Counted from the first letter of the stretch, positions 19,546 through 43,219 are shown. The stretch is DNA of 64,000 nucleotides from an uncultured Candidatus Saccharibacteria bacterium (GCA_964474375.1 CAYYSG010000001.1:18559-82558); one strand, 5' to 3'. The notes: a model not told the origin generated them from the sequence alone. A program made the numbers and translations.

Positions 19546-19578
19546 GTATAAATTATAACATTTTGCTATAATACTCCT

Positions 19579-20184
19579 ATGATAGAAAAATACACTGCAA
19601 AACAATATGATTTGCCAGAACTAACTGGTATTTCCAAAAAAAGTATAGAAGAACATATGAAACTATACGAAGGCTATGTTAAACACGCCAACCTAATAAA
19701 AGAAAAGCTAGAATCAATCCCCGCGGACGATGCCTATACTCGCACCGAACTCATGCGACGGTTTTCTTTCGAGTTCTGTGGTATGCGTAATCACGAGCTT
19801 TATTTTTGGTCTCTTGTTGGTGGGGCTAGTACTATTCCAAATGGTTCAAAGTTAGAATCAGACATCATTCGTGATTTTGGTAGCATAGATGATTTTTTTA
19901 TAAAATTAAAAGAAATAGCTTTGACTCGGTCCGTTGGTTGGGCAATGTTGTCCTACGATGTAACATTCGACCACTTGACTTTGTCTTGGGTGGATGAACA
20001 GCATATAGGGCAACTCATGAACGTGTTCCCTGTTTATGCTATCGATATGTGGGAACATGCTTATGTTTACGACTATCAGCCTAGTGGTAAAAAGAATTAT
20101 CTTGAAGACTATATCAAAAATACAAATTTCGAATCTTTATCTAACCGCTACGAAGTTTTTTGCAGTAGCTTAAAACCTTTGTAA
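19579..20184 (+). CDS. sodA: Fe/Mn superoxide dismutase family protein
   Basis: NHELYFWS and AIDMWEHAYVYDY match the SOD metal-ligand motifs NHxxFW and DxWEHAYY. The N-terminal HH..HH motif is partly degenerate. Confidence 0.7.
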   Translation: MIEKYTAKQYDLPELTGISKKSIEEHMKLYEGYVKHANLIKEKLESIPADDAYTRTELMRRFSFEFCGMRNHELYFWSLVGGASTIPNGSKLESDIIRDFGSIDDFFIKLKEIALTRSVGWAMLSYDVTFDHLTLSWVDEQHIGQLMNVFPVYAIDMWEHAYVYDYQPSGKKNYLEDYIKNTNFESLSNRYEVFCSSLKPL

Positions 20185-27311: not shown

Positions 27312-27872
27312 TTAGTATAGAAATACCGGATTTTCCCTATTTGAGCCATTATCGGGACCTTCTGTGTCCCTTTCTGGGTTATCAACTGTGACTGTTATCG
27401 GGCTTAAATCTATGGATTTTCCGTCTTGTTTTGTAACTTTTATATATAGGACATTTACTCCATCTTTGGTCTTACTGCTATCCCAGATGCTGTTATAAGG
27501 AGCATTACTGTCGGATTCTATCAGTGTTTTACCGACATAAAAGTCTATTTTTTTAACAAGCATTCCGTCTTCGGGGATTATGAATACCGGGACTATCCCT
27601 GTTACTGTTTGACCATCTTTTACTCCATCGACGGTAAAACTCTCCCCTGTTTCGGTCTTTACTTGGTTTACGAGGTCAAATATATTTTCCTCGGGGACGG
27701 GTGTAGCATCTTGGATGGATGTGATGTTTTGGTTTAAGTAGTTTACATTACGATTCACAAACAAATATATAGATATTGTTGTTAGTAATCCTACTAAGAA
27801 TACGAATGTAATTAATTTATTTATTTTGTGTGGTTTGTTTTCTATCATATTTTTTCTTAAAGTTCGTCCCAA
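27312..27872 (-). CDS. Membrane-anchored hypothetical protein, last gene of pilus operon
   Basis: N-terminal TM (LITFVFLVGLLTTISIYLFV). Overlaps the upstream gene by 16 nt. Confidence 0.5.
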   Translation of the reverse strand: MGRTLRKNMIENKPHKINKLITFVFLVGLLTTISIYLFVNRNVNYLNQNITSIQDATPVPEENIFDLVNQVKTETGESFTVDGVKDGQTVTGIVPVFIIPEDGMLVKKIDFYVGKTLIESDSNAPYNSIWDSSKTKDGVNVLYIKVTKQDGKSIDLSPITVTVDNPERDTEGPDNGSNRENPVFLY

Positions 27873-29323
27873 GATATTACGGAATATTTATCTGATGTTA
27901 GTGGAAATGATGGTGGTGGTCCATATAGCAAGTTAGCGTCATAGGTAATGGTTCTGTCTTCATATCCAGTTCCGTTTGTATAAGCAAAACCATAACGCTG
28001 GTTAGTACCTATCATACCGTACAGTGTTATGGAATCTCTTTCGTGGTATGGGGAACAACTTGAACTATAGTAATGTCTACCTACTCGCCCATTGATTGCC
28101 ATTAGTGCTGCATCTATTCTTAAATCTGTATCACTCACCATGCCTATGTTTATGTCGTCTTGTGCAATTAGAGCTAGGACATCTTGTCCGTCATAGTTTG
28201 TATAGCTGATGTCGTTATTTATTGTTATGTTTTTTCTTTGGCTGGCATTGTCCGGGAATCTACCCGCGGCGATTGTTATCCTTGCTGTGTTTATTGTTCC
28301 TTCTACCCAAACATTGTCTTCTACGAATATTAATCCATTAGCTGGGTTTGCATAGTTTGCAATAAAAGTTTGGCCATTGTTTGACCGGATGCTCCATGTC
28401 CCCCAAGAAGAATCATATCCACTAGAATTACTAGAACAAGAGTTAGATGCTGATGTTAGGTTAGTTACACGATATAGGTCAAAAGTATCATTGGTTCGCA
28501 AGACTATTCTGTAGCCAAGTTGTCCAGATGCTGCAAAATATCTACCATTAGATTGTGCGTCAGCTTTTATATTGGAAAGATCACTGGTAATACCTGTAAA
28601 GTCAGCTTGAGGTACTGGGAATTGCCTACCGGCCATAAATACATCTGTTCGGTTAGGTACCGGACTTGTCGGTGGTGCTTCACTCGAGCGGAAAGAACTG
28701 TTTACTCCAGACGAAGGCGGTGCATTTACATGAGTATGAACCCCAAATTCACTATTACCTGTATGGTCAGGGTCGTTATATGATGATACTGCACTGGTTA
28801 CTAGATTATGAGCGATACCATCGAACCGAATACCACCATTGGAATGTAGTGGTCCAAATACTTCGGTACCTTCACCAAAACGCATCTCATCGTTTGCTAC
28901 TACTGAATAACGCGCAAAAGAAGGAATAGCTAATCTTACTTGAACAGTTCTTCTTATTGTTGGTGAAGCGGTAATTCGTCCTTCGGAAGTTACTGTTACA
29001 ATTGTCGATCCAGTAATCGGTGGTGTAATCGTTAGGCTGAATGTACCTACTTGGTTTCCATCTTTGTCGTAAAAATTATGAATATATGGACCCGATTGCC
29101 CTGTACCATCTTGAAAATCACTTGGTGCATGAGCCAGGTGCCATCTGTAGTATTCGACGCCGGCTTCAGCTATCTGCAATGCCTGTTCCTTGTAAAGAGA
29201 TCTTCTGGCTAATTTGATACTTGACCCAGACCAAGCCACAAAGAAACTTAAGAAAGCCAAAGCCACACTTAGGAAGACAAGTGTATTTATTAGAATTATT
29301 CCAGTGTGTTTTGTTTTTGGCAT
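27857..29323 (-). CDS. PilX-like type IV pilus minor component
   Basis: Hydrophobic N-terminus followed by QALQIAEAGVEYYRWHL, resembling the PilX_N pattern. 488 aa. Confidence 0.45.
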   Translation of the reverse strand: MPKTKHTGIILINTLVFLSVALAFLSFFVAWSGSSIKLARRSLYKEQALQIAEAGVEYYRWHLAHAPSDFQDGTGQSGPYIHNFYDKDGNQVGTFSLTITPPITGSTIVTVTSEGRITASPTIRRTVQVRLAIPSFARYSVVANDEMRFGEGTEVFGPLHSNGGIRFDGIAHNLVTSAVSSYNDPDHTGNSEFGVHTHVNAPPSSGVNSSFRSSEAPPTSPVPNRTDVFMAGRQFPVPQADFTGITSDLSNIKADAQSNGRYFAASGQLGYRIVLRTNDTFDLYRVTNLTSASNSCSSNSSGYDSSWGTWSIRSNNGQTFIANYANPANGLIFVEDNVWVEGTINTARITIAAGRFPDNASQRKNITINNDISYTNYDGQDVLALIAQDDINIGMVSDTDLRIDAALMAINGRVGRHYYSSSCSPYHERDSITLYGMIGTNQRYGFAYTNGTGYEDRTITYDANLLYGPPPSFPLTSDKYSVISWDEL

Positions 29324-29324
29324 T

Positions 29325-29930
29325 TTAATAATTATCTTTTAGGTTCCGTAGGCTAATCTGGGTCGTTATGACTGTTGCATCTGGCGCTACTTCTGTATTC
29401 GCATCTAATAATAGTTCTATTTTAATTAAACGAATGGTGGATATGTCTACAGGTTGCGACAATGCAGCGGATGATCCCGTGTAATTAGTATCGTAGTATG
29501 TAAAAATTGGGTTAGCAGCGGTGTTTCTTACATTATAAACTACATCAGTCAAAGTCTCCGTAGTATTATAACTTAGTGGGTTGCCTATCGGTGTGATAGT
29601 GCCTCTTCTTAGAGTTGTACCAGACAGGAAGTATCTTATGCGTTCCCGAATGCCATCACTATTTGTATCAGCGTAAAATATAAAGCTAGTCGTCCCTGCT
29701 GATTCTATTGGATAAGTACCTGTACTAGACGTTGTGGCTGATCTTATTTCGGATGAAATAGGATTTAGAATTGTTCTGGAGTTATCAGAAATACTGAGTG
29801 AATTTGAAAACCCTTTGTTGTAAGAAAAAATATTACTCGCAAAAGAACTAATAATAACGATCATTGTACCTAGTACAAAAAGACTTATTAGTAATTCTAT
29901 TACAGTGAAACCCTGGGATTTTTTTTTCAT
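29325..29930 (-). CDS. Type IV (pseudo)pilin with class III signal peptide
   Basis: KSQGFTVIELLISLFVLGTMIVI places a prepilin peptidase site G/F with Glu at +5. Confidence 0.75.
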   Translation of the reverse strand: MKKKSQGFTVIELLISLFVLGTMIVIISSFASNIFSYNKGFSNSLSISDNSRTILNPISSEIRSATTSSTGTYPIESAGTTSFIFYADTNSDGIRERIRYFLSGTTLRRGTITPIGNPLSYNTTETLTDVVYNVRNTAANPIFTYYDTNYTGSSAALSQPVDISTIRLIKIELLLDANTEVAPDATVITTQISLRNLKDNY

Positions 29931-29937
29931 CTAGTAT

Positions 29938-31740
29938 TTATTGTGCGATTGTAACTTCTTCGCTTTGCCAATTACTACTAATGTTTATGATTCGACTCAT
30001 ATCTTGATAACCGCTCTTTGTTACAGTTAAAGTATAATCCCCTGTGCTAAGTCCCGCAAATGAAATTTGACCTGGTGGTATACATGATGATGTATAAGTA
30101 ACTGATATGTCTGATACTGATGGCGTATAGTCAGTATCATCAGTCTCTAGAAATATTCTATATCTTAAATATTGGTTACCGTTATGAGATGCACCTATGT
30201 TTTGGTCGGCTGTTGTAAAATAAGTCGAAGACGTATCATCTGGTCCAACAAAATCCCAAGTTAAATTATCATTATTTGTAGCTATTTGGAATTTCACAGA
30301 ATCTGCTCCTGTTTGTACTGGCTGAACACTGGATTCCCATAATATTTGTTTAAAATTTCCTGGTGCTCCTATGTCAAAAGTTGATGATGTTAAATAACCA
30401 TTTTGGATATAACTACTACCACTACTACTTAGTTCAAGCAACCCAGGGTTACTGCCCGTGTCTACGTTTCCGTCAGAATCAAAATACATAGCGCTATCCC
30501 CTATATCTGTTTGACCGGAACCACCTGACCAGTCGGTTTGTGTTATGAACCCTTCGTCTGTTATTTTTGTTGAGTTGTATCCGCCAGATGAATCAAGAGT
30601 TACGCTAGCATCTGTTACAGGTAATCCTGTTGATTGGTCTCGAACTATTACCACTAACCTGCGACCATTTTTAGCAGCTAATGTTAGTTGCATGTTTTGA
30701 GTTGTATCTGGCGGTACTCCTAGTGATAGTAGTGGGTTTGTACCTATTATGTCGTACGTCCCGTCGGTACCCAGTATGTTATAAGTGTCCCATTCAAGGT
30801 TACTAAGTAGTGCCTGCCCTGACCCATCAGTAATGAACGACTGCGAATATTTTATTGTATCAGGATCTGTGCCTATTAATTTAAGACCTACCGCATCAAA
30901 ATCGAATCCAGAAATTGGGCTACACTGTGAATTAACCGCGGTTACCGGCACAGTACTGACTTTATCGATAGCGAAAGATACTTGTGTGATTTGTTGAATA
31001 ACCACAGTTAGGTCTGGTTTCAAAGGATTAGGGTTAGCTTGTTCGCCTGGTAGGTATGTTCTTTCTGTAGAATAGCCATTTTTACTAACGGTTATTCTGT
31101 ACCCATTAACTGATGGGGGTGCGTCGACTATAGTCAGTGTGCCATCGACTCCTGTTACATCAGTTATATTAATTGCAGGGCTTAGACTAGAGTTTGCAAT
31201 GTTTACAGTAGCTCCTGATACAGCAACTCCTGACCCATCGAATACTCTTACTACTAATGCTCCATTAGTAGAAGCTGTTTCAAGATTTTTAGGGGCTATA
31301 GTACTGGTTAGTGTCACTGGTGCAAAATTAGTACAAGCATTACATGAAACGATTATTTCCATTAATTTCATGTCTGCTGGAGACAAGTCGTTAGGAGACC
31401 CACCTAGAGTTCCATCAAAAGGATCATCGATATTACGTATTGTTATGCTTACATCAAATGTCCTAGTATCACGTGTTATAGTTTGGCTTTGAGGAAAAAC
31501 CCCAGCCGGAATACCATTTATGGTTCCAACGCTAGCATAAGGTAGATTCCGAGCTATTTCGAATTGTTCGTTAGCTAAGTTTGTTGCTATTTCTTTTAGC
31601 TTAATTAAATTCATTAGTCTTAGTGTATTTCCGAAACCTTGATATAGCGCTACAGATACACCTAAGAATATCGCCATTGCTACTAGCGTTTCCATTAGAG
31701 TAAACCCACCTTTTTTAATTATTTTTTTTATTTTAAACAT
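29938..31740 (-). CDS. Large type IV pilin-like protein (600 aa), possible tip/adhesin pilin
   Basis: KKGGFTLMETLVAMAIFLGV prepilin N-terminus, then a large Thr/Ser/Gly-rich domain. Confidence 0.6.
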   Translation of the reverse strand: MFKIKKIIKKGGFTLMETLVAMAIFLGVSVALYQGFGNTLRLMNLIKLKEIATNLANEQFEIARNLPYASVGTINGIPAGVFPQSQTITRDTRTFDVSITIRNIDDPFDGTLGGSPNDLSPADMKLMEIIVSCNACTNFAPVTLTSTIAPKNLETASTNGALVVRVFDGSGVAVSGATVNIANSSLSPAINITDVTGVDGTLTIVDAPPSVNGYRITVSKNGYSTERTYLPGEQANPNPLKPDLTVVIQQITQVSFAIDKVSTVPVTAVNSQCSPISGFDFDAVGLKLIGTDPDTIKYSQSFITDGSGQALLSNLEWDTYNILGTDGTYDIIGTNPLLSLGVPPDTTQNMQLTLAAKNGRRLVVIVRDQSTGLPVTDASVTLDSSGGYNSTKITDEGFITQTDWSGGSGQTDIGDSAMYFDSDGNVDTGSNPGLLELSSSGSSYIQNGYLTSSTFDIGAPGNFKQILWESSVQPVQTGADSVKFQIATNNDNLTWDFVGPDDTSSTYFTTADQNIGASHNGNQYLRYRIFLETDDTDYTPSVSDISVTYTSSCIPPGQISFAGLSTGDYTLTVTKSGYQDMSRIINISSNWQSEEVTIAQ

Positions 31741-31743
31741 GGT

Positions 31744-32964
31744 TTAACTTACGTTTTCCATCATTTTGTACATCGGTGTCATCATAGCAACAGCAAAGAA
31801 TCCCACAGCTCCCCCGATTAGCAGCATCAGCATTGGTTCAACTATTGTGGACAAGTTCTTTGTTTTTTGGTCAACTTCGTCTTCATAAAAATTTGCTACA
31901 TCTATTAGCATATCGCCGACTTTTCCGGATTCTTCACCTACTTCTATCATGTCCCCCATCATAATTGGGTATAAATTAGAATGGTTTTGAAATGCACTAG
32001 ACAGAGGACTACCTTTTTGAATATCACGCAGAGCTTCTTCCATTACAGCTTTGTATTGCAAATTCCCAATAACGTCACGTGTAATTTCTAGACTCCTTGT
32101 TACACTAACCCCTGATTTTAGTAGTGACGCCAGGGTACGCGCCGTTCTAGCTGTTAGAGTTTGTTTGGCTATAGTGCCAATGGCTGGCAGTTTTACTATA
32201 GCAATACTAAGAAATTGTTTAACTTTAGGAAGTTTTGTTACTTTGTATATTGTAAAAACTATAACAACAATCCCTACAACAAGAGCAATGAAATTATCAT
32301 TGATAGTATTAGCTAGCCAAAGAACTATTTTAGTTGGTAGTGGCATATCTACATCAAATTCCACGAATACTTTTAAAAGGTTCGGTACGACGAACTTCAT
32401 CATTAGTATCCCAATGATACCCATAGCACCAATAATAACCATTGGGTAGGTCATAGCACCTTTTATTTTTCTTTTTAGATTGTAAGATCTTTCGAGATGT
32501 GTCTCGACTTCGCGCAATGTTCCTACCAGGTTTCCGGATTCTTCACCTGCGCGCATCATTGAAATAAATAAATTATCAAAAACTTTTGGGTGTTTAGCTA
32601 ATGCATCAGATAAATTGCCTCCAGCCTTTATGTTTTCAAATATACTATGAAAAATAGCTTTCATTTTTACGTTGGTACTTTGTTTTTCTAGTATTTCTAT
32701 ACTACGAGCCAGTGCCACACCAGCTTGCATAAGACCCGCCATGTTTCGGCACATATTAATAAGGTCTGTTGTTTTGATACGTGTTAGGAATGAAAAACTC
32801 ATACCATCTTTTTTCTTTTCTTTGACGGATATCAAAATATCACCTTGTGTTCTAAGACTTCTAGCCAGAGTAAGTTTATCCGGCGCTTCCATTTGTCCGT
32901 CGTACTTTTCACCATTTTTGCGAGCTGCTTTGAATTTGTATAACATATTATTCGTTAATAACAC
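31744..32964 (-). CDS. pilC: Type IV pilus assembly platform protein PilC (GspF family)
   Basis: Duplicated GspF domain architecture with three TM segments. 406 aa. Confidence 0.8.
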   Translation of the reverse strand: MLLTNNMLYKFKAARKNGEKYDGQMEAPDKLTLARSLRTQGDILISVKEKKKDGMSFSFLTRIKTTDLINMCRNMAGLMQAGVALARSIEILEKQSTNVKMKAIFHSIFENIKAGGNLSDALAKHPKVFDNLFISMMRAGEESGNLVGTLREVETHLERSYNLKRKIKGAMTYPMVIIGAMGIIGILMMKFVVPNLLKVFVEFDVDMPLPTKIVLWLANTINDNFIALVVGIVVIVFTIYKVTKLPKVKQFLSIAIVKLPAIGTIAKQTLTARTARTLASLLKSGVSVTRSLEITRDVIGNLQYKAVMEEALRDIQKGSPLSSAFQNHSNLYPIMMGDMIEVGEESGKVGDMLIDVANFYEDEVDQKTKNLSTIVEPMLMLLIGGAVGFFAVAMMTPMYKMMENVS

Positions 32965-34705
32965 GCAAGACTTCGTCTATTGTTGTTTCACCTTTTGCGG
33001 CTAAGAATATTCCGTCTTCAAGCATAGTCATCATACCTTCAACCTTAGCTTGCTTCTCTATTTCATCGTCTGTTGCTCCTTTTAGAATGAGCTCTTTTAT
33101 TGTCGGTGACATTACCAGAGCTTCATGTAGTCCAACACGTCCTTTGTATCCAGTGTCGGATTCTGTTGGGTTTAGTGGCCTATAAAAAGGTATTTCTCTC
33201 CATGTATCATTTGGGCCTATTATGTTTTCTGCTTTTAGGAAGCCGAGCATTCTGTCGAGGTCTACGAATTTAGAAAGTTCCATTAGTTCCGCATCATTCA
33301 TGATGTACTTTTCTTTTTCTCCACCAAGTCTTCGTACTAGTCTTTGAGCAATGATGATTTTTAAAGTTGAAACTAATAGAAATGCTGGTATTCCCATATC
33401 TAAGAATCTCGGAATAGCCCCAGCTGCACTATTGGTGTGGATAGTTGATAGTACAAGGTGTCCAGTCAATGCAGCATTCACGGCGATACCGGCTGTTTCT
33501 CCATCACGAATTTCCCCTACCATAACAATGTCCGGGTCTTGACGAAGAAGAGTTCTTAGTCCGTTAGCAAAAGTCAGCCCAATTTCTGATCTTACTTGAG
33601 TTTGGTTTATGCGAGGCATTTGGTATTCTACCGGGTCTTCAACTGTCGAAATATTTACTTCCGGAGTATTTACCATGTCGAGCATTGTATATAGTGTGGT
33701 TGATTTACCGGATCCTGTTGGTCCGGCTGCTATGATCATTCCGATGTGTTGCTTTAGAGCATTGTGAGCTCTTTCCAGTGAATTTCCATGGAAACCAAGC
33801 CCTTCGAGAGTAAATCCTTTGGAATTTTCTTTCAGAATACGAATAACGACTTTTTCTCCATAGTACACAGGCAAGGTTGATACACGAAATGATACTTTCA
33901 TTCCGTCTTGTTCTATTTTGAACCGCCCGTCTTGTGGCAGTCTTTTTTCATCAAGTTTAAGGTTAGACAAGACTTTGATACGAGCAACTATACCATTGGC
34001 GGTTTTCTTCGGAAGAACCATGGCATCACGCAAGAGTCCATCGATACGGTACCGTACGTAGAATGCATCCTCGTGGGGTTCCATATGGATATCACTGGAT
34101 CCTTGGAGTATAGCGTGGGATACTAGCGAATCCACGATTTTTACTATTGGTAGGTCCTCGGCTAATTCCTTTAAATCCTTTTCGTTTTCAACAATTTCAC
34201 CATCTTTGGAGACTTTTAAAGATTTTACATTGCCGGATTCTTTGTCGATTATGTCTTGGAATTCATCATGTAGTGTTTTTTTATATAAAGTCAGTGCGTG
34301 TGTGATAGAAGCACTGTCGGTTAGTCTTGGCAATAGTTTGACACCTAGTTTTTTCTTTATAGAGTCCAGCACCACTAGGTCGTCCACATCAAGCATCGCG
34401 ACTTCTAGTCCTTTGTCTTGCTTTTTATAAGCCACAATGTTGTGTGTTCGGACGATTGGCTCTGGAATAAGAGACAAGACTTCGATGTCGATATCGACAT
34501 TTTCAAGTGAAAGAAAAGGTATACCCAGTACGTAACCAACTGATTTTTGGAGTTCATCTTCTTTTATTTTACCTTGCGAAACTAGAACTTTTCCCAGAGT
34601 ATCCCCTGTTTTTTCAGATTGTTTCTCGGCTTTTTCTATATCGCCGGGTGTAACAAGATTTGATTCAAGTAGAAATTTTTTTAAAGCTTCTGGTGATACG
34701 TACAT
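32948..34705 (-). CDS. pilB: Type IV pilus assembly ATPase PilB (GspE family)
   Basis: Walker A GPTGSGKSTTLY and RQDPDIVMVGEIRD, plus an N-terminal GspII_E-like domain. Confidence 0.9.
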   Translation of the reverse strand: MYVSPEALKKFLLESNLVTPGDIEKAEKQSEKTGDTLGKVLVSQGKIKEDELQKSVGYVLGIPFLSLENVDIDIEVLSLIPEPIVRTHNIVAYKKQDKGLEVAMLDVDDLVVLDSIKKKLGVKLLPRLTDSASITHALTLYKKTLHDEFQDIIDKESGNVKSLKVSKDGEIVENEKDLKELAEDLPIVKIVDSLVSHAILQGSSDIHMEPHEDAFYVRYRIDGLLRDAMVLPKKTANGIVARIKVLSNLKLDEKRLPQDGRFKIEQDGMKVSFRVSTLPVYYGEKVVIRILKENSKGFTLEGLGFHGNSLERAHNALKQHIGMIIAAGPTGSGKSTTLYTMLDMVNTPEVNISTVEDPVEYQMPRINQTQVRSEIGLTFANGLRTLLRQDPDIVMVGEIRDGETAGIAVNAALTGHLVLSTIHTNSAAGAIPRFLDMGIPAFLLVSTLKIIIAQRLVRRLGGEKEKYIMNDAELMELSKFVDLDRMLGFLKAENIIGPNDTWREIPFYRPLNPTESDTGYKGRVGLHEALVMSPTIKELILKGATDDEIEKQAKVEGMMTMLEDGIFLAAKGETTIDEVLRVINE

Positions 34706-34763: not shown

Positions 34764-35675
34764 ATGAAAGTCTCAAAGAAAAATTTTTGGTTTGCTTTGT
34801 TTTTTGGTTTGATATTAGGTACTACATTTATTACTTCAGCATTTAGTGAACCAACGAGTCTGCCATCTAGCACTACGTCATATCCTCCGGTTAACTTAGG
34901 TAGTGAAACACAAATAAAAGAAGGGTCACTCGGTCTTGGTGATGGTACTGCAGTAGCTAGTTCTACACTAACAGGTGCTAATAGTCTTTATGTGACGGGT
35001 AACTTGGCTGCAGATGCAGTAAACGTTCGCAAAAACGCAACACTTGTTGGTAATGTAAATGTAGGCGGTCGTTCTATCATCGCCGGAGCCCTTCGCGCAG
35101 GTCAGGTTATCGTAAGTAACAGTACTAATTCTGTTCCAGCATATAACAACACTGGCGAAAAACTTTTTTTCCCCAACGGTACAACTACTAATTTGATTCG
35201 AGGTAACCATTGTACTTTTTCTAACAATACTGCTTGTCCACCAGGAACAGTCTTAGCTACTTATAACACTAACGGCACTGGAACTTGTAGACTAATCAAC
35301 CCTGTATCAGGAACACCTTCGTCTATTGGGGCTTGTTCTACATCAGGATATCCAAGTATTTCTTTAGGTTTAACTAATACTATTAATAATCAGGGTGCAT
35401 GTAAGGCTACACGGTACTACGCTGCTACTGGCACTGGTACAGTGTATTGGCAACTAAAAGGAGTCTCTGATACAGAATGGACTAGCTTTGGATCCGGCAC
35501 TACATCTCAAGTTGTTGTGGGTATGAACGGAACCAGTGCCAAACTGTATGATTTACGAGCTACTATAGTTAATAATGGATTGTCTAAGAGTCAAACAATT
35601 GAAGTTTATAATGTTGTAGATACTACTTGTGCATCACAATCTGGTGGAACAGGAGCTGGAGCTACAGGTCAATAA
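34764..35675 (+). CDS. Secreted protein, member of local paralog family (EPxGxxPxSNT N-terminal motif)
   Basis: Signal peptide then SAFSEPTSLPSSTTSYPPVNLGS...LGLGDG. Paralogous N-terminus to 35999..36718 and 38349..39437. Confidence 0.55.
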   Translation: MKVSKKNFWFALFFGLILGTTFITSAFSEPTSLPSSTTSYPPVNLGSETQIKEGSLGLGDGTAVASSTLTGANSLYVTGNLAADAVNVRKNATLVGNVNVGGRSIIAGALRAGQVIVSNSTNSVPAYNNTGEKLFFPNGTTTNLIRGNHCTFSNNTACPPGTVLATYNTNGTGTCRLINPVSGTPSSIGACSTSGYPSISLGLTNTINNQGACKATRYYAATGTGTVYWQLKGVSDTEWTSFGSGTTSQVVVGMNGTSAKLYDLRATIVNNGLSKSQTIEVYNVVDTTCASQSGGTGAGATGQ

Positions 35676-35688
35676 TAATAAATAATTT

Positions 35689-35997
35689 ATGGAAAACACA
35701 GAAAACAATACACCTATAGTAAACAAAATGCCGGAATTTAATAACGATACTATTTTAGTTAGTGGTTCCAAAAAACTAACAAAGAAAAAAAGAATCATTA
35801 TAATAATTGCTATTTTTGTACTTATTTCATTACTTGTAACTTATTTATTTTTGGACAATATTAAGCCAGCTGAAAGAATTCCAACTCTTGAAGAAAAAAT
35901 CCAAAACATTGAAAATGTTGTAAATGAAACAGCTCAAATAGGTTTGCCTCCTGAAAATACACAATTAGACATTATGAATTATAACCAAGCTGAATAA
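35689..35997 (+). CDS. Small membrane-anchored protein
   Basis: One TM helix (IIIIAIFVLISLLVTYLFL). Confidence 0.4.
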   Translation: MENTENNTPIVNKMPEFNNDTILVSGSKKLTKKKRIIIIIAIFVLISLLVTYLFLDNIKPAERIPTLEEKIQNIENVVNETAQIGLPPENTQLDIMNYNQAE

Positions 35998-35998
35998 T

Positions 35999-36718
35999 AT
36001 GAAAAAAATTCTCTCTATTTCATTTATAATAGTTTTAACTATTTTTATATCCGGAACCCTTTCTTATATAAAAGCCGCTTTCGTCGAGCCAGCTGGTAGT
36101 CCCCCGAATTCTAATACACCAGCCCCTGTTTTGCTTGGTGATAGTAATCTTTTTGCTTTTGTAAAACTTGGTAAATTAGGTATAACACGTGATGCATCTA
36201 CTGCCCCAGTTGAAAATGCAGCATTTGATAAAAACGTACTAGTTGTTGGCGGTCAATTAGCAACGGATTCATTAGCATCAAATGGTAATCTGACTATAAA
36301 TGCCGAACTTGAAACCAGCTCATCTTTAAAGGCATTGTTTGTGGGTGACCCTACACAGAATTCATTTATGCAAGTGAACCCTGATTCTAGTCCTAGAACA
36401 TTCTTAGTATCTTCACATACTCGTGCCCCAAGACTGGTCGCAGGCTCCAAAGGTGCTCCAGCTGGAGCGTATAACTTGTATTTAGCCGAAGGCAGTAATG
36501 CAACGAACCTTGGTAAAAATAATGACTACTGTGTTTTAACCAAAGATGAGCTTCAGAACAAAGGTTGTCCACATAATTATTCATATCGTAATGTGAATGT
36601 GGGTACATATTTAGGGCAAGTTATAGTTACCAGTAGTAGTGCTTCAACTGACGAGGTTGCATCTTGTTATATGGTTACACCATCAGCTACCCCTCGTAAC
36701 CTTAACCGATGTTATTAA
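35999..36718 (+). CDS. Secreted protein, paralog family member
   Basis: AAFVEPAGSPPNSNTPAPVLLGD...KLGKLG after the signal peptide. Confidence 0.55.
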   Translation: MKKILSISFIIVLTIFISGTLSYIKAAFVEPAGSPPNSNTPAPVLLGDSNLFAFVKLGKLGITRDASTAPVENAAFDKNVLVVGGQLATDSLASNGNLTINAELETSSSLKALFVGDPTQNSFMQVNPDSSPRTFLVSSHTRAPRLVAGSKGAPAGAYNLYLAEGSNATNLGKNNDYCVLTKDELQNKGCPHNYSYRNVNVGTYLGQVIVTSSSASTDEVASCYMVTPSATPRNLNRCY

Positions 36719-36732
36719 AATAAAAATACAAA

Positions 36733-36765
36733 ATCCCCTGACTTCATTGGTCAGGGGATTTTTAT
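36733..36765 (+). terminator. Rho-independent terminator (plus strand)
   Basis: atcccctga-cttcattgg-tcaggggat hairpin plus ttttt. Confidence 0.7.
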
Positions 36766-36795
36766 AAATAAAAAGTCCGGACATTTGTCCGGACT
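36766..36795 (-). terminator. Rho-independent terminator (minus strand)
   Basis: agtccggac-attt-gtccggact hairpin. The minus strand is followed by tttttattt. Confidence 0.7.
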
Positions 36796-36815
36796 AGTCT
36801 ATAAGTTTAGGAATT

Positions 36816-38240
36816 TTATTCTACAACTAGTTTTGTTGGCGTGTAGCCAGCTAGCTGTATAAAATAAATCCCTTTGTTTAAGAACGATACATCTACGATT
36901 TGGTTTGTAATACCAGTCAGTACTATTTTACCGGTGATGTCTATTACTGTAAAAGTAAAGTCTTCCGGAGTACTAACGGTTACAAAACCAGTCGCAGGAT
37001 TTGGGTAAACAAGCAGTTTTGCTAATGACACATCATTAATACCAACATTTCTATCAGCAATTTTGCATATCATGTTGTCACCGAATGCAAATGTGTCAGT
37101 ACCAATACCGACGATCCTTTTAGGTGACCATGTGTAACCAAACTTTTGATAGTATTGGATACTATGCTCATCTTTTAATGGGGGCCATCCGTCTTCTGTT
37201 AAACGATAAACGGTAAAGAATTCATTTAACATTTCTCCTTTTACTGCGTCAAAGTATTGACCTTTCTGGTTTTTCCAATCAACCCAATAATAATGTCTGC
37301 CATGTTGATCAGTGGTGGGAAATCCGTATCCAATAATAGGTAAACTATCTATACTTTCCCATGTTGTGCCAGAAACCCATTTTTTGAGTTTGTTGGCTGA
37401 GCTTGTTGCATAGATTTCCCCATCAATATTCCGAACATAGATTCTATTAAATCCATCTTCTACTCCAGATAAATAAGACGTGTCATTATCGACATCAAAT
37501 ATAAATGAAGCTCCAGACATAGATGGTGAATGTCGCCCACCAAGGAAGAATTTACCATCTTTGTAAGCAATAGTCCCCATGGACATATGCCTATAGCCAG
37601 CAAAAGGTGTCATCGTCTTAATGTGCTGATACGTTTTGGCATCGTACACATAAGCTGAATCAAAGTAGTACCAATCATCTACTCCCACAGTTTTAATGAA
37701 TTTAGATGTAATAGTGATTATGTATTTGTCACTTTCACAAACTAACCTCATCATATCTTTGGGATTTTTGTAAAAATTAAGTTTTGTGTAGTTTATGTTG
37801 TCGTCAACAATAACTGCTTTGTAAATTACATTACTGTAACTTTCAACCACAAAAAATGTATTTCTATCATAACCTTTGTAGAATATTGGAGATAACAATG
37901 GTCCTTGGTTCCAGTTAGATTTCAATATGAAATCCTTGGTTTTTTTAGACCAGAGTACAATTGGGTCCCCTTTTTCTTTGTTGGAAAATACGAGTTCATT
38001 ATACACAGGGTTTGGTTCAGAAAATAAATTAGACTGAGCCCCTATAATAATAAAATCATTTCTCTCTTCGAATAAAGTTGTACCCCAGTTTTGGTCATCA
38101 CATGACAAGATGTACTCACCCATAGAATAGCTCTGCCATTCTTTGGTGTAGTCTTGTGCTGTTGCTTGTTTACTTGTTAAAGTGCTCAGGATGAACAGTA
38201 TTAATACTGCTACAAACCTGAATTTGTATAAGTTTTTCAT
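36816..38240 (-). CDS. Secreted protein with C-terminal T9SS-type (Por_Secre_tail-like) sorting domain
   Basis: Signal peptide. C-terminus LLVYPNPATGFVTVSTPEDFTFTVIDITGKIVLTGITNQIVDVSFLNKGIYFIQLAGYTPTKLVVE matches the TIGR04183-type pattern (VYPNPA...V.D..GK.V......VDVS.L..GIYF..L...TKLV). Confidence 0.6.
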   Translation of the reverse strand: MKNLYKFRFVAVLILFILSTLTSKQATAQDYTKEWQSYSMGEYILSCDDQNWGTTLFEERNDFIIIGAQSNLFSEPNPVYNELVFSNKEKGDPIVLWSKKTKDFILKSNWNQGPLLSPIFYKGYDRNTFFVVESYSNVIYKAVIVDDNINYTKLNFYKNPKDMMRLVCESDKYIITITSKFIKTVGVDDWYYFDSAYVYDAKTYQHIKTMTPFAGYRHMSMGTIAYKDGKFFLGGRHSPSMSGASFIFDVDNDTSYLSGVEDGFNRIYVRNIDGEIYATSSANKLKKWVSGTTWESIDSLPIIGYGFPTTDQHGRHYYWVDWKNQKGQYFDAVKGEMLNEFFTVYRLTEDGWPPLKDEHSIQYYQKFGYTWSPKRIVGIGTDTFAFGDNMICKIADRNVGINDVSLAKLLVYPNPATGFVTVSTPEDFTFTVIDITGKIVLTGITNQIVDVSFLNKGIYFIQLAGYTPTKLVVE

Positions 38241-38348
38241 GATTCTGTATATTTTAAATTTATTAATTACATTATACCATTTGACAGGCTGTCAAACCAG
38301 TCCTATACACACTATGTGGATATCCTATATACGTGATATAATATAGGT

Positions 38349-39437
38349 ATGAAACATAAAGCTTTTCTTATAGTGTTACTACTTTTGGTTACTTTTGGTA
38401 CAGCTGTATTGGCTGACTATGTCGAGCCTACTGGTACCGCTCCGGCATCGAATACCGGTGAAGTTTTAAAAACAGGCCCGAAGAATACTAATTCCATGAC
38501 CTATGAAAAAATAGGTATTGGTGATGGAACCAGTGCTACCATTTCTAACATTGCGTCTCAGGGCTGGCTTTATCTTACTGCTGGTTCGTATGCTGGGTCT
38601 GGTGTTGGAGATAAAGGTGTAAAGCCTGATAGACTAGTAGTAACAGGTGCCACAGGTGTTGTTTCTGGTAAAGACTTTATTGTACGAGTTGACCCTATTA
38701 CCGGTAATGAGTTTGATCAATTCAAAAATAATAGCTCTTTTAAGTATGATAAGTTTATAAATAATAATGTTAACCCTGCTCCTACTACCCCAAAACCATT
38801 AGAAGCTTTTGTTGCAGGGCGTTATATTTCAAATTTTGCTATAACTAATTCTTCAGATATTACTACAAATTCTAGCCCAAACACTTATTCTTTAGAGCTT
38901 CGTGAAGCTGGTTCTTTTGACCCTACTACTAACATTGGCCTAGGTAACAGTTGTAACTTGTACCCTGCTGATTTAGGTAACACTATTGGTGATGGCGGCG
39001 GATGTCCTGCTGGTACATATATGACGCGTTATATTGGTCCAAGTTATTCCGGAACATTAAGTTCTACTAATAACACAAACACTCAAGTCGTTGCTACCTG
39101 TACAGAATTTAATCCATCTATTAATCCTACAAGTGGTCCACATTGTAGCACCGGTCGCACTTTTAGTAATGCTATTCGTATTGGTAAAGATATTTCTTCC
39201 GGTAGTGTGTGTCTATTTACTATTTCATCTGGAACAAGCTTTACGAATTCTAATGTTCCTGCAAATTTCAATGGTAAAAATGTAAAAATACGCTGGTATG
39301 CATTAGGAGGTAATCCAGCAAGGGCTTATATTAATACGTTAGACAATCAAAAAACTTTTACTTATGGCTGTGCTCAGGATTCATGGGAAGCAGAAGTATA
39401 TGATGACTATGGTCAGTATTTCAATATAACAAGATAA
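38349..39437 (+). CDS. Secreted protein, paralog family member
   Basis: LADYVEPTGTAPASNTGEVLKTG...IGIGDG after the signal peptide. Confidence 0.55.
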   Translation: MKHKAFLIVLLLLVTFGTAVLADYVEPTGTAPASNTGEVLKTGPKNTNSMTYEKIGIGDGTSATISNIASQGWLYLTAGSYAGSGVGDKGVKPDRLVVTGATGVVSGKDFIVRVDPITGNEFDQFKNNSSFKYDKFINNNVNPAPTTPKPLEAFVAGRYISNFAITNSSDITTNSSPNTYSLELREAGSFDPTTNIGLGNSCNLYPADLGNTIGDGGGCPAGTYMTRYIGPSYSGTLSSTNNTNTQVVATCTEFNPSINPTSGPHCSTGRTFSNAIRIGKDISSGSVCLFTISSGTSFTNSNVPANFNGKNVKIRWYALGGNPARAYINTLDNQKTFTYGCAQDSWEAEVYDDYGQYFNITR

Positions 39438-39451
39438 TAAATATTTAAAAT

Positions 39452-39483
39452 ATAAAAACCTCGGGAATATCCGAGGTTTTTAT
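39452..39483. terminator. Bidirectional terminator
   Basis: aacctcgg-gaatat-ccgaggtt hairpin with a flanking A run and T run. Confidence 0.7.
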
Positions 39484-39484
39484 A

Positions 39485-41272
39485 TTACATTTTTTCTACC
39501 GGTTCTATGCCTAGAATATTTAGTCCGTGTTTGATAGTTTTAGCTGTTGCTTCTAGTACTGCTAATTTCTCACTTACATTCGGGCTGTCGTCCAGAATTT
39601 TTTCATCGTTATAGAATTTGTTAAATGCTGATGCTAACCCCAGTAAATAATGTGCTATTCCGTGTACGGAAAGATGTTCTCTTGCTGAACCCAGTGTTAT
39701 TGGGTAAGCATTAATAGTTCGCAGTACATCGTGTGCAGTATTACCCGCTTGGGCTACTACTTCTATTCCTCGGTTTTTTGCTTCGCGGAGTATCGACTGA
39801 ATACGTGCATAAGTATACATTACATATACACCACTATCCCCTGATATGCTAATGGATTCATTTATATCGAATGCCATGTTCATATTCTTTTCGCATTTTA
39901 GGATACTGAATTTTGTTGCACCTAACGCTATTTTTTCAGCTAAATCAGGTTCATCTGTCGCCTGTAACCTATTCCCTGTAACTTCTAAAACTTTTTCTTT
40001 TACTATATCAAGCAAATCGTCTATTAGTAGTACAGTCCCTGCGCGTGATGACATTTTTTTAAAGTTGCCGTCAATGTCTTTTAGTCCCATGTATCCATAT
40101 GGAATATGAATAAAGTCATCGTATTTGCCTATGCCTAGCTGTTCACAAACTGCAAAAAGTTGCTTCATTGCTAGACTTTGTTCGGGTCCTATAACCCAAA
40201 TCAATTTGTCAGCATTGTAGGTTTTCTTTTTTAAATCTGTTAATGCTATGTCTTGGGTTATATATAGTGCAGTTCCATCGTTCTTTAACAGTATTGTTTC
40301 TGGAATGTTGTAGTTCTCTTCTATCTGAGTCAGGATTGCTCCATCTTCTAATTTTTTAAAAATACCTTTTTCTAAACCTTGCTCTACATAGTCTTTGCCT
40401 TTTTGGTAATGTTCATGTTCATGCCAGACCTTGTCCCATTTGTTACCTAATCTACTCAGGGTCATTTCCATACCAGCGTATGAATAGTCCAAGATGTGTT
40501 GCCATAATTTCCATGTATCTTCATCTTTGTTTTCCCAGTCTAGTACCATTTGGCGAATTATCTTATCGATTTTCTCGTCATTTTTTCTTAACTCTTCCCC
40601 GCCAGTGTAGCAAGCGGTTACGAATACATCTGGCCTTAAATTTTTATCTTCGGGGGTGTGCCAAGCATCTTTATTTTTAACCCAGTATTTTGTATCAATA
40701 GGTGTTTCATTATTTTTTCGCTCTAGTGCTAGGAAGCCATACATTGCTTTGGCTATAGCTATTCCCCTGTTGTTGTCCACCGCATCGCGTGTCACCCGAG
40801 CGCCAAAATTTTCCATCAAGTTCGCCAGACTCATTCCAACCAAGTTGTTACGCAAATGCCCTAAATGCATAGCTTTGTTTGGGTTCGGACTGGTGTGTTC
40901 GATTACCCAATGAGTGTCAGTGTCTTTATTTGATTTAAAAATCTCCTTATTATTTAAAATACTATTTAATACATTTATTCTAGCGTTATCGTTAATAAAT
41001 ATATTAATTAGCCCTGGACCAGCTACTTCTATTTTTTCTACTAGGTCTCCTATTTTTTCATCTAGAAATGTTTTAATTTCTTTAGCTAATTCTGTTGGGT
41101 TTTGTTTTGCTATTTTTGCTACACGCAAGGCTATATTTGTAGTTAGGTCACCGTGCTGAGTATAAGCCGGTATAGACAAAGAGCTTGGTTCGTTATAACC
41201 AAGTTCTTTTATGTGTGCATCTAGAACCTCTTCTATTTTAAAAAGAGGAAAATTATCAGGACTATTTTTCAT
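39485..41272 (-). CDS. argS: Arginine--tRNA ligase
   Basis: HIGH-like MHLGHLRNN and a C-terminal DALK-type anticodon-binding domain. 595 aa. Confidence 0.85.
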   Translation of the reverse strand: MKNSPDNFPLFKIEEVLDAHIKELGYNEPSSLSIPAYTQHGDLTTNIALRVAKIAKQNPTELAKEIKTFLDEKIGDLVEKIEVAGPGLINIFINDNARINVLNSILNNKEIFKSNKDTDTHWVIEHTSPNPNKAMHLGHLRNNLVGMSLANLMENFGARVTRDAVDNNRGIAIAKAMYGFLALERKNNETPIDTKYWVKNKDAWHTPEDKNLRPDVFVTACYTGGEELRKNDEKIDKIIRQMVLDWENKDEDTWKLWQHILDYSYAGMEMTLSRLGNKWDKVWHEHEHYQKGKDYVEQGLEKGIFKKLEDGAILTQIEENYNIPETILLKNDGTALYITQDIALTDLKKKTYNADKLIWVIGPEQSLAMKQLFAVCEQLGIGKYDDFIHIPYGYMGLKDIDGNFKKMSSRAGTVLLIDDLLDIVKEKVLEVTGNRLQATDEPDLAEKIALGATKFSILKCEKNMNMAFDINESISISGDSGVYVMYTYARIQSILREAKNRGIEVVAQAGNTAHDVLRTINAYPITLGSAREHLSVHGIAHYLLGLASAFNKFYNDEKILDDSPNVSEKLAVLEATAKTIKHGLNILGIEPVEKM

Positions 41273-41281
41273 TGATTTGTC

Positions 41282-43219
41282 TTAGAACTCTTTAAATACA
41301 GGGCCTTTACCTGGACATCTTGTTCCGACACATGTGGTGTTTGTGCTACATGTGTTTTGTACTTCCACGTCTACTGATTGAGTCAACGGTGTACCACTAG
41401 GGTTTGATGATTCCTGACATCCAGAAACAGTATATGTGTATGTTTGCCCTACTGTTAGATTACTTGCTGAACGAATATAATGCAAGTTAAAGTTATTTTG
41501 GTTTATTTTTGCACTATTACCACTTAGCCAGCTACGTTCACATGATCCTGATACTAAATTGGACCCAATATAATGTATGTCTATATTATCCGCTGGTGTT
41601 ACACAAGCATTAGCCGCTGTTACAGACAATGCTCCTGATGCACATGATCTACTCATTGCTTTACCAGCAGTCCATAGGCTACCATCAAGCTTTTGGCATT
41701 GCAGTTGGTATATAATACTACCTGTTTGAGTTACTGCACCTGTAGTTTCGTCGTGTGTTGTTGGTCCATCATTTTCAGTTATGGTTGTACTACTACCCCA
41801 GTCTGGGTTATTAGTATTACCATCTATCATAGCCCGGCAAGTTCCGGATTTAACATTTTTTGTACTATAAGTAATAGTTACACCTGTATTACTACAAGGA
41901 ATTATACTTGTGCTGTTTGTACTGTTGTCTTTTACACTAAATGTAACTGTTGGTGTTGGTACTGTAACTGTAGTTTTAGCTGTAGCACTACCAGTTCGTA
42001 CTGGGGTTGGTGGAGTACTGTCAGTACATCGCAATTCCCAGTTAGCTGTAGCGGTCAGGTTGTTTACTGTAATAGTATCTTCGAATATATCTTCTTTTGT
42101 ACCATCGCTAGTTACACTAATGCCGCTTTGTACCACGTTGCCGTTGTTTAGCAGTGTTGCGCTACATCCATAAGGTATGTTTGTTACGGTGTAGTCTAGC
42201 GCAGCGCTTTCACCGTATATTTTATTTGCTGGTGCACTAAGAGTAACTTGTGGAGTAAAGTTTGATAGATTTACCAATACATCCCCTGTACCTTTTTTGC
42301 CACTGTATTCACATGTCAGAGTAAATGTCGTTGGGCTACTAATGACGCCTACATTCAAAGTACCGCTGTCTATGTCAGTTCCTGTTGGTGTATAAGCATC
42401 CCATGTAGAATTAGCTGGACTTGATGATGTTGTTGCTGTACAGCCATTTGGTTTATTGGTTACTGTCCAAGACAATGTAACGTCCCCTGTATGTGAAACT
42501 GGGTTTGGGCTAGCAGTTATAGTAACTTTTGGCTTGTCGTTGTCATCTATACAGTCAGCTCCTTGTGCTACTGCACACGATACTCCTCCACCTGTCGGGT
42601 TCATTTTTATCCAGCCGGCACCTTCAGCATAATTACTGTCACCTGGCGCCCTGTTTCCTCCACCCCAAGCAAATCCTGTAAAAGCGTTAGAAGTACTGTA
42701 TGCTACGCCGAAATTACTACCCTTAAACCCTATCCAGCCATCGTATCCGCCCAGTTCAGATGCTGGTCTTAAATTTCCAGAACAGCCTGATTGGTATACA
42801 AAACAAAACCTTGCATAGCCGACTAGTTTATAGCCACCATCGTCAACTAAATGCACATTACAAGGTCCATCTTGGCTTTGGTTGTTAGGATTTGTTTGAC
42901 AAGCGGTCTTAGCACTTGGAAATTCACTATCGTCGAATCCTCCGAATTTTATATAGCCATATCTTTCGCTCCAAGCATATCCATTTAATTCCCAGCTGGT
43001 GCGGTCAAAAGTAACTTTGTATTCAGTATTACTAACAGCAGTATTTGACCCGGTTGAAGTATTGTTAAAGTTAATCCAGCCAACTCCCCCGAATGGGGTA
43101 TTGTCTGCTCCCCATGCGTAACCCTTGAGGTCAACAGTTGCCGCGGACATTATGTTGGTTATTCCGAAGAATAAAAATATAGCAAAACTAAAGATCTTGA
43201 AAAAAGATTTCATATACAA
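41282..43219 (-). CDS. Large secreted Cys/Thr/Gly-rich surface protein
   Basis: Signal peptide MYMKSFFKIFSFAIFLFFGITNIMSA. Repeated Cys pairs and Thr/Ser-rich segments. Confidence 0.5.
   Translation of the reverse strand: MYMKSFFKIFSFAIFLFFGITNIMSAATVDLKGYAWGADNTPFGGVGWINFNNTSTGSNTAVSNTEYKVTFDRTSWELNGYAWSERYGYIKFGGFDDSEFPSAKTACQTNPNNQSQDGPCNVHLVDDGGYKLVGYARFCFVYQSGCSGNLRPASELGGYDGWIGFKGSNFGVAYSTSNAFTGFAWGGGNRAPGDSNYAEGAGWIKMNPTGGGVSCAVAQGADCIDDNDKPKVTITASPNPVSHTGDVTLSWTVTNKPNGCTATTSSSPANSTWDAYTPTGTDIDSGTLNVGVISSPTTFTLTCEYSGKKGTGDVLVNLSNFTPQVTLSAPANKIYGESAALDYTVTNIPYGCSATLLNNGNVVQSGISVTSDGTKEDIFEDTITVNNLTATANWELRCTDSTPPTPVRTGSATAKTTVTVPTPTVTFSVKDNSTNSTSIIPCSNTGVTITYSTKNVKSGTCRAMIDGNTNNPDWGSSTTITENDGPTTHDETTGAVTQTGSIIYQLQCQKLDGSLWTAGKAMSRSCASGALSVTAANACVTPADNIDIHYIGSNLVSGSCERSWLSGNSAKINQNNFNLHYIRSASNLTVGQTYTYTVSGCQESSNPSGTPLTQSVDVEVQNTCSTNTTCVGTRCPGKGPVFKEF

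Follow-up and report, generated by a model that had tools for sequence, protein, structure and literature searches.

Three secreted paralogs beside a type IV pilus operon

This study investigated three genes, here termed P1, P2, and P3, that lie beside a type IV pilus (T4P) operon in a stretch of DNA of 64,000 nucleotides from an uncultured Candidatus Saccharibacteria bacterium (GCA_964474375.1 CAYYSG010000001.1:18559-82558). The whole stretch is referred to as the window, and its GC content is approximately 37%. An initial annotation had described the three products as secreted proteins that share a motif after the signal peptide and flank the pilus operon. The flagged interval comprises five genes, namely P1, the gene for a 102-amino-acid (aa) membrane protein (c1), P2, a gene for a 474-aa protein on the opposite strand, and P3 (Table 1). 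The three open reading frames (ORFs) were recovered on the plus strand at the positions given in that annotation, and the ORFs, their alignment, BLASTP, and hhalign bore out the common motif. On sequence grounds, P1, P2, and P3 are members of a large family of Sec-exported surface proteins of Patescibacteria (the candidate phyla radiation, CPR), which has no annotation and is defined by a short N-terminal arm.

All three genes were located on one side of the pilus operon, divergent from pilB, and not on both sides of it as had been described. P1 is upstream of c1 in the same operon, and c1 ends 1 nt before the start codon of P2. P3 has no upstream c1 and is set apart from P2 by the opposite-strand gene (36816-38240). 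The P1-c1-P2 transcription unit probably ends at two terminator-like hairpins between P2 and this convergent gene. Strong palindromic terminator-like hairpins were also observed between the convergent genes P3 and argS (39449-39486), and both sets probably act as bidirectional terminators. On the basis of the hairpins after P2 and P3, P1-c1-P2 looks like one transcription unit and P3 appears monocistronic. The gene order pilB / P1-c1-P2 / 474-aa protein / P3 / argS was retained in five relatives, down to approximately 40% identity in P3, and c1 was retained in all of them.

The signal peptides of P1, P2, and P3 exhibited a basic n-region, a hydrophobic h-region, and Ala at position -1 (TSA↓FSEP, IKA↓AFVEP, and VLA↓DYVEP, respectively), with the signal peptidase I (SPase I) cleavage sites predicted from the statistics of residues -3 and -1. 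Directly after the signal peptide, the three proteins share the stretch [FY]xEP[TA][GS]..P..(S)NT ... G[LI]G. Pairwise BLASTP of the N-termini yielded E values of 3e-05 for P1 and P2 and 1e-03 for P1 and P3, and P2 and P3 were aligned over almost their full length (1e-07). The family profiles of the three proteins were aligned by using hhalign with a probability of 98.8-98.9% (E 1.6e-17 to 7.6e-17; 186-215 aligned columns), and four Cys residues were invariant in the module TNLGxGNxC...CPxG...C..NP......C, which lies within a core of approximately 200 residues. Because the profile alignments span the whole core, including the four invariant Cys residues, P1, P2, and P3 are full-length paralogs. 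P2 represents the minimal core and terminates at the fourth Cys.

These results contradict the earlier statement that the Cys patterns of the three proteins are unrelated, and the view that they are unrelated proteins sharing only a tag does not hold for P1-P3, which are homologous over the core; it does hold for the wider superfamily described below, in which the arm precedes at least 26 types of tail. The motif that had been written for them, A-x-[FY]-x-E-P-[TA]-[GS]-x-P-x-S-N-T ... [LI]G[LI]GDG, captured a genuinely shared module but did not fit all three sequences: P1 lacks the residue between A and F and reads T where the motif has N, an additional residue precedes the P after [GS] in P3, and P2 carries LGITRD where GxGDG is expected.

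Table 1. Coordinates of the features of the window considered in this study
Feature	Position	Strand	Basis
P1, module-bearing secreted protein, 303 aa	34764..35675	+	ORF; family P0023-31
P1 Sec-type signal peptide, residues 1-26, predicted SPase I cleavage TSA↓F	34764..34841	+	Read from sequence; family -3/-1 statistics
P1 N-terminal arm, residues 27-63: FSEPTSLPSSTTSYPPVNLGSETQIKEGSLGLGDGTA	34842..34952	+	Alignment, hidden Markov model (HMM)
P1 four-Cys module, residues 142-191 (C150, C158, C175, C191)	35187..35336	+	Invariant columns, hhalign
P1 C-terminal FN3/Ig-like beta-sandwich extension	35349..35621	+	
c1, small bitopic membrane protein, 102 aa: K/R-rich N-terminus, one transmembrane helix, charged tail	35689..35997	+	ORF
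P2, module-bearing secreted protein, 239 aa	35999..36718	+	ORF; family P0032-39
P2 N-terminal arm, residues 27-67: AFVEPAGSPPNSNTPAPVLLGDSNLFAFVKLGKLGITRDAS	36077..36199	+	Alignment, HMM
P2 four-Cys beta domain, residues 170-239	36506..36715	+	AlphaFold2 (AF2), predicted local distance difference test (pLDDT) 83-96
Two terminator-like hairpins between convergent P2 and opposite-strand gene	36730..36795	.	Consensus scan
P3, module-bearing paralog, 362 aa	38349..39437	+	ORF; family P0001-22
P3 N-terminal arm, residues 23-62: DYVEPTGTAPASNTGEVLKTGPKNTNSMTYEKIGIGDGTS	38415..38534	+	Alignment; 66 bits with A2 profile
P3 four-Cys module (C202, C219, C251, C266)	38922..39146	+	Invariant columns, hhalign
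c2, 645-aa secreted GYAWS/GWI(S/N)F-repeat protein, without Pfam match	41282..43219	-	blastp
T4P operon beside P1	27857..34705	-	Pfam, NCBIfam; Pfam on orthologous genes; translations
pilB	32948-34705	-	
pilC	31744-32964	-	
600-aa modular pilin: prepilin N-terminus (N_methyl, GspI-like), then CarboxypepD_reg-like beta-sandwich domains	29938-31740	-	
201-aa minor pilin	29325-29930	-	
488-aa protein with PilX-like N-terminus, without Pfam match	27857-29323	-	

An N-terminal arm in a large family of predicted secreted proteins

We built a 40-position profile, A2, from the N-terminal stretch alone and searched it against 1.84 billion cluster-representative proteins (E<=1e-3). The search identified 333 cluster representatives, and in all of the best 150 of these 333 the match started between residues 1 and 57, in proteins of 78-947 aa. 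A degenerate DNA pattern for WTEPTxxPPxxN, which is blind to the position of the ORF, was then run on metagenomes and yielded at least 120 loci; all 123 module ORFs in these loci carried the module at residues 9-43 of the longest ORF.

The general consensus of the arm is A↓WTEPTxxPPxxNxPAPINVGxxxQxKxGxLG(I/V), with a length of 35-40 residues and six positions (P, N, P, N, Q, and G) conserved in at least 90% of sequences. The superfamily as a whole is described by a Sec signal peptide followed from position +1 by [WFY]-x-[EGD]-P-x3-4-P-x2-4-[NTS]-x2-4-P-x-N-x-G...Q-x-K-x-G-x-L-G. Across 262 members, position -1 was Ala in 77% and position -3 was V, A, L, or I in 72%, the uncharged run upstream had a median length of 18, and the aromatic residue had a median position of 30. 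These statistics place the start of the module at position +1 of a predicted canonical SPase I site.

To relate the window to this superfamily, an HMM was used that had been built from 120 independent metagenomic WTEPT modules. The model matched residues 26-64 of both P1 (E 5.7e-06) and P2 (1.3e-05) and missed P3 (E 0.75). P3 was therefore joined to the superfamily through its paralogs P1 and P2 by hhalign; its score of 66 bits with the A2 profile comes from a profile that P3 itself helped build. P1 is the least diverged of the three and the closest to the general consensus, and P3 is the most diverged. P1-c1-P2 and P3 form a diverged, clade-specific branch of the superfamily, with Y or F for W, a shared four-Cys knob, and an FN3-like addition in P1. 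Within the window, the module was present only in these three ORFs, and their close homologs (22 for P3, 9 for P1, and 8 for P2) co-occurred on the same contigs.

No Pfam, NCBIfam, or PHROG match was obtained for P1, P2, or P3; no Pfam or NCBIfam family covered the arm in them or in 131 relatives, and a PDB sequence search with the module profile returned no match. The family members are nameless or labeled "hypothetical protein" in the source annotation. A literature search by motif strings, CPR pili, and minor pilins or PilY1 in Patescibacteria, which was incomplete in coverage so that an earlier description is possible, found no description of the arm.

Diverse tails behind the arm

The sequences that follow the arm fell into at least 26 groups that were mutually unrelated by BLAST. 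They included tail-fibre-like repeats, collagen GXY, Peptidase_S74, Collar, Gp53-like_C, H_lectin, Dockerin, and fn3 tails as well as small Cys-rich heads, which suggests that the tails are adhesins or fibres. Shufflon_N, the constant region of PilV (PF04917), was found in three of 131 module proteins (in P0056 at residues 170-251, E 3.9e-22). In the AF2 model of P2, only the signal helix and the four-Cys beta domain were predicted with confidence, and the arm (pLDDT 41-56) had no regular structure; the four-Cys domain had no significant fold match in the PDB. The model of mature P1, based on a 129-sequence alignment, presented the first 29 or so residues as coil and the C-terminal FN3/Ig-like sandwich with confidence; pLDDT was 60-63 over the first 20 or so residues of the arm and rose to approximately 71 by residue 30 and to 71-76 by residue 40. 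As modeled, the arm is an extended, proline-rich N-terminal segment and not a domain.

Phage sequences were searched for the arm in three ways. A tblastn search of 50,697 phage genomes matched only the GNVGIGT repeat and no arm, an IMG/VR search with a typical member matched only the region after the module, and the WTEPTxxPPxxN DNA pattern occurred in 2.9 million IMG/VR contigs at one GC-rich, out-of-context chance site. What phage genomes and PHROGs share with the family is the GNVGIGTTxPxxKLDV repeat, which lies downstream of the module in many members. On the basis of these searches, a viral origin of the arm was rejected.

The strict N-terminal position in the best 150 matches and in all 123 metagenomic ORFs, the variety of tails, the coil models, and the absence of the arm from phage fibres agree with the proposal of the initial annotation that the motif is a tag rather than a catalytic domain. 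The possibility raised there, that the motif belongs to a common globular domain without positional bias, is contradicted by the N-terminal position and the coil model. The same results bear on a simpler explanation, in which P1, P2, and P3 are ordinary paralogs of a single lineage, with a motif that belongs to their globular fold and a chance location beside the pilus operon. The homology over the whole core and the synteny of the region as a block are consistent with this explanation. However, hundreds of proteins with nothing else in common carry the module, always at the N-terminus, the arm is modeled as coil, and the linkages to c1 and to pilins described below recur in unrelated loci. 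The strict N-terminal position and the tail diversity have already largely refuted it, and we consider it very improbable.

The tails and models also allowed us to weigh a purely structural role, in which the arm would act as the N-terminal cap or trimerization nucleus of fibrous, often trimeric, proteins and would have no targeting function. Many tails are indeed fibre-like (collagen GXY, S74 chaperone, and GNVGIGT repeats), and a low-confidence monomer model is what would be expected of an oligomer-dependent fold. Nevertheless, the arm is missing from phage and other fibres that have these repeats, it also heads nonfibrous tails (e.g., FN3, the four-Cys core, and small globular domains rich in Cys), and it keeps a fixed register relative to the signal peptidase site. 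A role confined to structure therefore seems improbable.

Gene neighborhood of the arm

To examine the genomic context, we clustered the neighbors of 123 metagenomic module genes. The commonest neighbor, c1, encodes a bitopic membrane protein of approximately 100 aa; for 42 of 110 module genes, it was the adjacent upstream gene in the same orientation, at a median distance of approximately 37 nt. In a homology-free count, a small gene with a transmembrane helix adjoined the module gene upstream in 42 of 112 cases (38%) and downstream in 7 of 61 (Fisher P 2e-4). An HMM of the window c1 and four orthologs matched 16 c1 members beside metagenomic module genes. Within the window, a small bitopic gene directly upstream, as in the superfamily, is true of P2 (35689-35997, 1-nt gap). 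The topology of c1, with K/R before the transmembrane helix, places its tail outside the cell. The c1 tails are charged, of low complexity, and highly variable. Conservation is much stronger in the arm, a difference that speaks for a conserved acceptor over c1 alone. The extracellular tails (c1 of the window and of metagenome loci L092-L208) often contained short repeats such as ..(I/L)xx(L/S)TAP.. or ..EEIQKQLEEL.., and longer variants of c1 (165-198 aa) had an added conserved C-terminal domain of approximately 70 aa that ends in ..NIRGKTEF.A.YINKI.

The second neighbor was c2, present in 25 of 120 metagenome loci and located beside pilB in L137 and L018. The c2 of the window had 14 blastp matches to this cluster (best 1.5e-20), and c2 may be a beta-propeller-like partner of the system. 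A Pfam search of the partner families c1, c2, c3, c7, and c12 gave no informative match. The next clusters were minor pilins of the GspH, GspI, GspJ, and PilX types. An order on one strand of minor pilins (c10-c5-c4, sometimes with the PilX-like c12), c1 in some cases, and then the module gene was found in L093, L095, L097, L123, L141, L147, L157, L181, and L204. The module gene was directly upstream of pilB in L137 and L209, and a c2-c1-module array preceded pilB in L016 and L018, two loci from metagenome-assembled genomes (MAGs).

Tandem arrays of three to four module genes were observed in L018 (5799-8640, CAYHIR010000010.1), with the order c2-c1-module-module-module-like-module-359 aa-pilB, and in L189. 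Such arrays suggest duplication and diversification of adhesin tails.

The neighborhood is informative on whether the arm is instead an export or processing element, removed as a propeptide or recognized by an additional protease or by a modifying enzyme (e.g., a glycosyltransferase) after Sec export. Its fixed +1 position at the SPase site, its richness in Pro, Ser, and Thr, and its lack of structure in the models would all suit such an element. However, no protease or modifying enzyme recurred among the neighbors, the top clusters being c1, c2, minor pilins, and housekeeping genes, and six near-invariant positions over 35 residues exceed what is typical of pro-regions. We assign this explanation a low probability.

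The arm might also be an envelope anchor that is independent of the pilus and binds c1, the cell wall, or an S-layer; the tails would then be fibres of the cell body, and the proximity to pilus genes would be secondary, reflecting a grouping of genes for surface structures. In accordance with this model, c1 was the strongest and most specific neighbor, it lies 1 nt from P2 in the window, its tail is predicted to be outside the cell, and most module genes are away from pilus genes. By contrast, variable c1 tails facing an arm that is near-invariant at six positions are a poor fit to a specific interaction between arm and tail, over half of the module genes lack an adjacent upstream c1-like gene, and the recurrent same-strand slot right after the minor pilins is left unaccounted for. 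An anchor of this type is the main rival of the pilus docking proposed below and is possible but, on balance, doubtful.

Comparison with known pilus and surface systems

We compared the arm with systems that deliver or anchor surface proteins. PilY1 of Pseudomonas and Myxococcus, a component of the tip and priming complex of type IVa pili, resembles the module proteins in that it is a non-pilin adhesin with a Sec-type signal peptide and variable regions. Its gene follows those of the minor pilins (fimU-pilVWX-pilY1), and module genes take up this slot in at least nine unrelated loci; P1-P3 in the window diverge from pilB instead of following the pilins. Docking of PilY1 is mediated by a beta-propeller at its C-terminus. 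The module proteins differ from it in having no sequence or Pfam relation to it, with a short N-terminal arm as the conserved element, and in being encoded by genes that are often multicopy and often away from pilus loci. The PilY1 (Neisseria PilC) beta-propeller had no Pfam match in P1-P3 (E<=1) or among the families listed for the 131 relatives.

In the R64-type PilV shufflon adhesin, which likewise acts at the pilus tip, a constant N-terminal region is combined with exchangeable C-terminal specificity segments, and the three module proteins noted above match its constant region. However, PilV is a true type IV prepilin with a hydrophobic helix after the cleavage site, and P1-P3 had no Shufflon_N match. 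The class III signal of type IV prepilins (N_methyl PF07963, TIGR02532) is similar as an N-terminal processing and assembly signal associated with pil genes in the genome, with an aromatic residue at +1 and then an acidic residue (F-T-L-I-E compared with W/F-T-E-P). In that signal, the leader is short and basic, Gly occupies -1, +1 is Phe or Met, +5 is Glu, and the hydrophobic helix comes after the cleavage site, whereas the module proteins have the hydrophobic stretch before cleavage, Ala rather than Gly at -1, no helix thereafter, and a site of the SPase I type. A prepilin identity of P1-P3 was rejected, because they had no N_methyl or IV_pilin_GFxxxE match, the neighboring pilins did, and the topology is reversed.

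Phage tail fibres and tailspikes with an S74 chaperone share with the family a conserved N-terminal attachment, a repetitive shaft, and a variable distal part, and some module proteins end in Peptidase_S74 or Gp53-like_C; nevertheless, phage fibres have neither the signal peptide nor the arm. P1-P3 were excluded from this group by the lack of any Peptidase_S74, Collar, or tail-fibre PHROG match, although some distant superfamily members do have such tails. S-layer homology (SLH) anchors of monoderm bacteria also follow immediately on a cleaved signal peptide and hold a variety of passengers, but SLH is a folded domain of approximately 55 aa that usually occurs in three copies, whereas the arm is single-copy, Pro-rich, unstructured, and without a Pfam match. 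No SLH or other known envelope-binding family was found over the arm in P1-P3 or the 131 relatives.

Two further sorting routes were rejected. Lipoprotein processing by SPase II is contradicted by F, Y, or W at +1, or A or D followed by F or Y, with no Cys near the cleavage site. C-terminal sorting by LPXTG, a type IX secretion system (T9SS) C-terminal domain (CTD), or PEP-CTERM does not agree with the C-termini of P1-P3 (...GAGATGQ, ...NLNRCY, and ...YFNITR), which had no Pfam or NCBIfam match; a T9SS CTD is present in the neighboring gene at 36816-38240 and not in P1-P3.

Possible docking of the arm at the pilus tip

The arm probably functions as an N-terminal module that tethers interchangeable adhesins to the cell surface or to the T4P, a role suggested by its gene context and relevant to the way in which these epibionts hold on to their hosts. 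We tentatively propose, as a reading that seems quite possible, that it docks variable adhesins to the minor-pilin priming and tip complex of the T4P, with c1 as a helper on the membrane side and the module proteins in a role like that of PilY1; the proposal draws on gene order. According to this model, the Sec pathway would export the precursor, and signal peptidase I, as predicted from the sequence statistics, would bare the conserved aromatic N-terminus. The arm, which would not fold by itself, would then dock on a conserved acceptor at the cell surface and tether the variable adhesin or fibre tail. The acceptor would most likely be the minor-pilin complex, and the cotranscribed c1 would serve as a holder or helper at the membrane. 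The module proteins would thus take the part of PilY1 as non-pilin adhesins borne by the pilus and attached through an N-terminal arm. In the window, the cassette would be P1-c1-P2, divergent from pilB, with P3 as a nearby monocistronic copy. We favor pilus docking because module genes occupy the pilY1 slot and because the conservation of the arm argues for a conserved acceptor.

The frequency of pilus genes near module genes was also determined. A T4P marker was found within six genes in 13 of 62 loci with at least five genes and in 10 of 35 loci with at least eight genes, which corresponds to binomial P values of 0.008 and 0.002, respectively, at an assumed background of 10% and of about 1e-5 at 5%, the 5-10% background being an estimate from 24 pil genes in four TM7x loci (PMC12206443) and not a measured control. 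The association of module genes with pilus genes is real but partial. The earlier suggestion that the proteins are pilus-associated is partly supported, by gene context only, in the recurrent same-strand slot after the minor pilins or beside pilB, which applies to only about a quarter of the module genes with adequate context.

In addition to the estimated background, several observations weigh against pilus docking. The binding partner of the arm is assigned from gene order, and the analogy with PilY1 is one of role only, given that PilY1 docks C-terminally. Approximately three quarters of the module genes with adequate context had no pilus gene within six genes, and the strongest linkage was to the small membrane protein c1 and not to pilins. 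Many genomes have tandem arrays of module genes, beyond the obvious need of a single pilus tip. A module gene was located within 10 kb in only about 4 of 45 Paceibacteria pilB loci, and on this basis the view of module genes as general pilB neighbors was rejected; the link is to the ends of minor-pilin operons and to c1. Finally, the whole block from pilB to argS and on to nusA, tig, and clpP is syntenic in the clade of the window, so the adjacency to pilB in this clade may only mirror general synteny.

A broader form of pilus docking would be a hitherto unrecognized surface-display system of Patescibacteria in which the WTEPT arm and its cognate c1 load interchangeable, fast-evolving adhesin or fibre modules onto the minor-pilin tip complex, with the set in the window as a diverged, lineage-specific version. 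We hold this broader form to be rather unlikely.

To our knowledge, every cultivated member of Patescibacteria is an obligate epibiont, and host recognition and grip are an open question. A phylum-wide arm on dozens of unrelated adhesin-like tails would allow candidate host-binding proteins to be catalogued by sequence across thousands of MAGs. T4P are nearly universal in Patescibacteria, and Saccharibacteria require them, whereas their adhesive components are poorly defined (PMC12206443). The coupling of the arm to c1 and to minor-pilin operons provides a testable hypothesis for the tethering of non-pilin adhesins. If the broader form of pilus docking is correct, the family would represent a modular, PilY1-like, N-terminally docked host-recognition toolkit of episymbionts; if the arm is only a structural cap or a propeptide, the family definition would still be useful, with modest biological interest. 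The family merits a Pfam or NCBIfam model, its members being at present unnamed or "hypothetical."

Other features of the window

The PilB of the window was 54-66% identical to that of Taylor-, Lloyd-, Nomura-, Zambryski-, and Kaiserbacteria MAGs, which assigns the window to a CPR bacterium of the Parcubacteria/Paceibacteria type. After the 488-aa PilX-like gene, a 186-aa membrane protein with a Big_7 Ig domain is encoded at 27312-27872 (- strand), and these two genes form the end of the pilus operon, before the TIM and PGK genes.

The 474-aa secreted protein at 36816-38240 (- strand) has at its C-terminus a sorting domain of the T9SS type (Por_Secre_tail, Pfam 2.9e-10; TIGR04183, 8.8e-09); CPR bacteria, to which this genome belongs, are generally regarded as monoderms without a T9SS. 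In all five relatives, the gene has kept its place between P2 and P3, and the protein evolves fast, with 27% identity where P3 has 57%.

Farther upstream in the window, a 1417-aa ORF at 14409-18662 (- strand) had no Pfam match at E<=1e-3. ComEC is apparently split into a Competence/DUF4131 channel part and a metallo-beta-lactamase part, encoded by ORFs at 18691-19605 and 20148-21455 (both - strand), and a 201-aa ORF on the + strand (19579-20184) overlaps the gap between the two parts.

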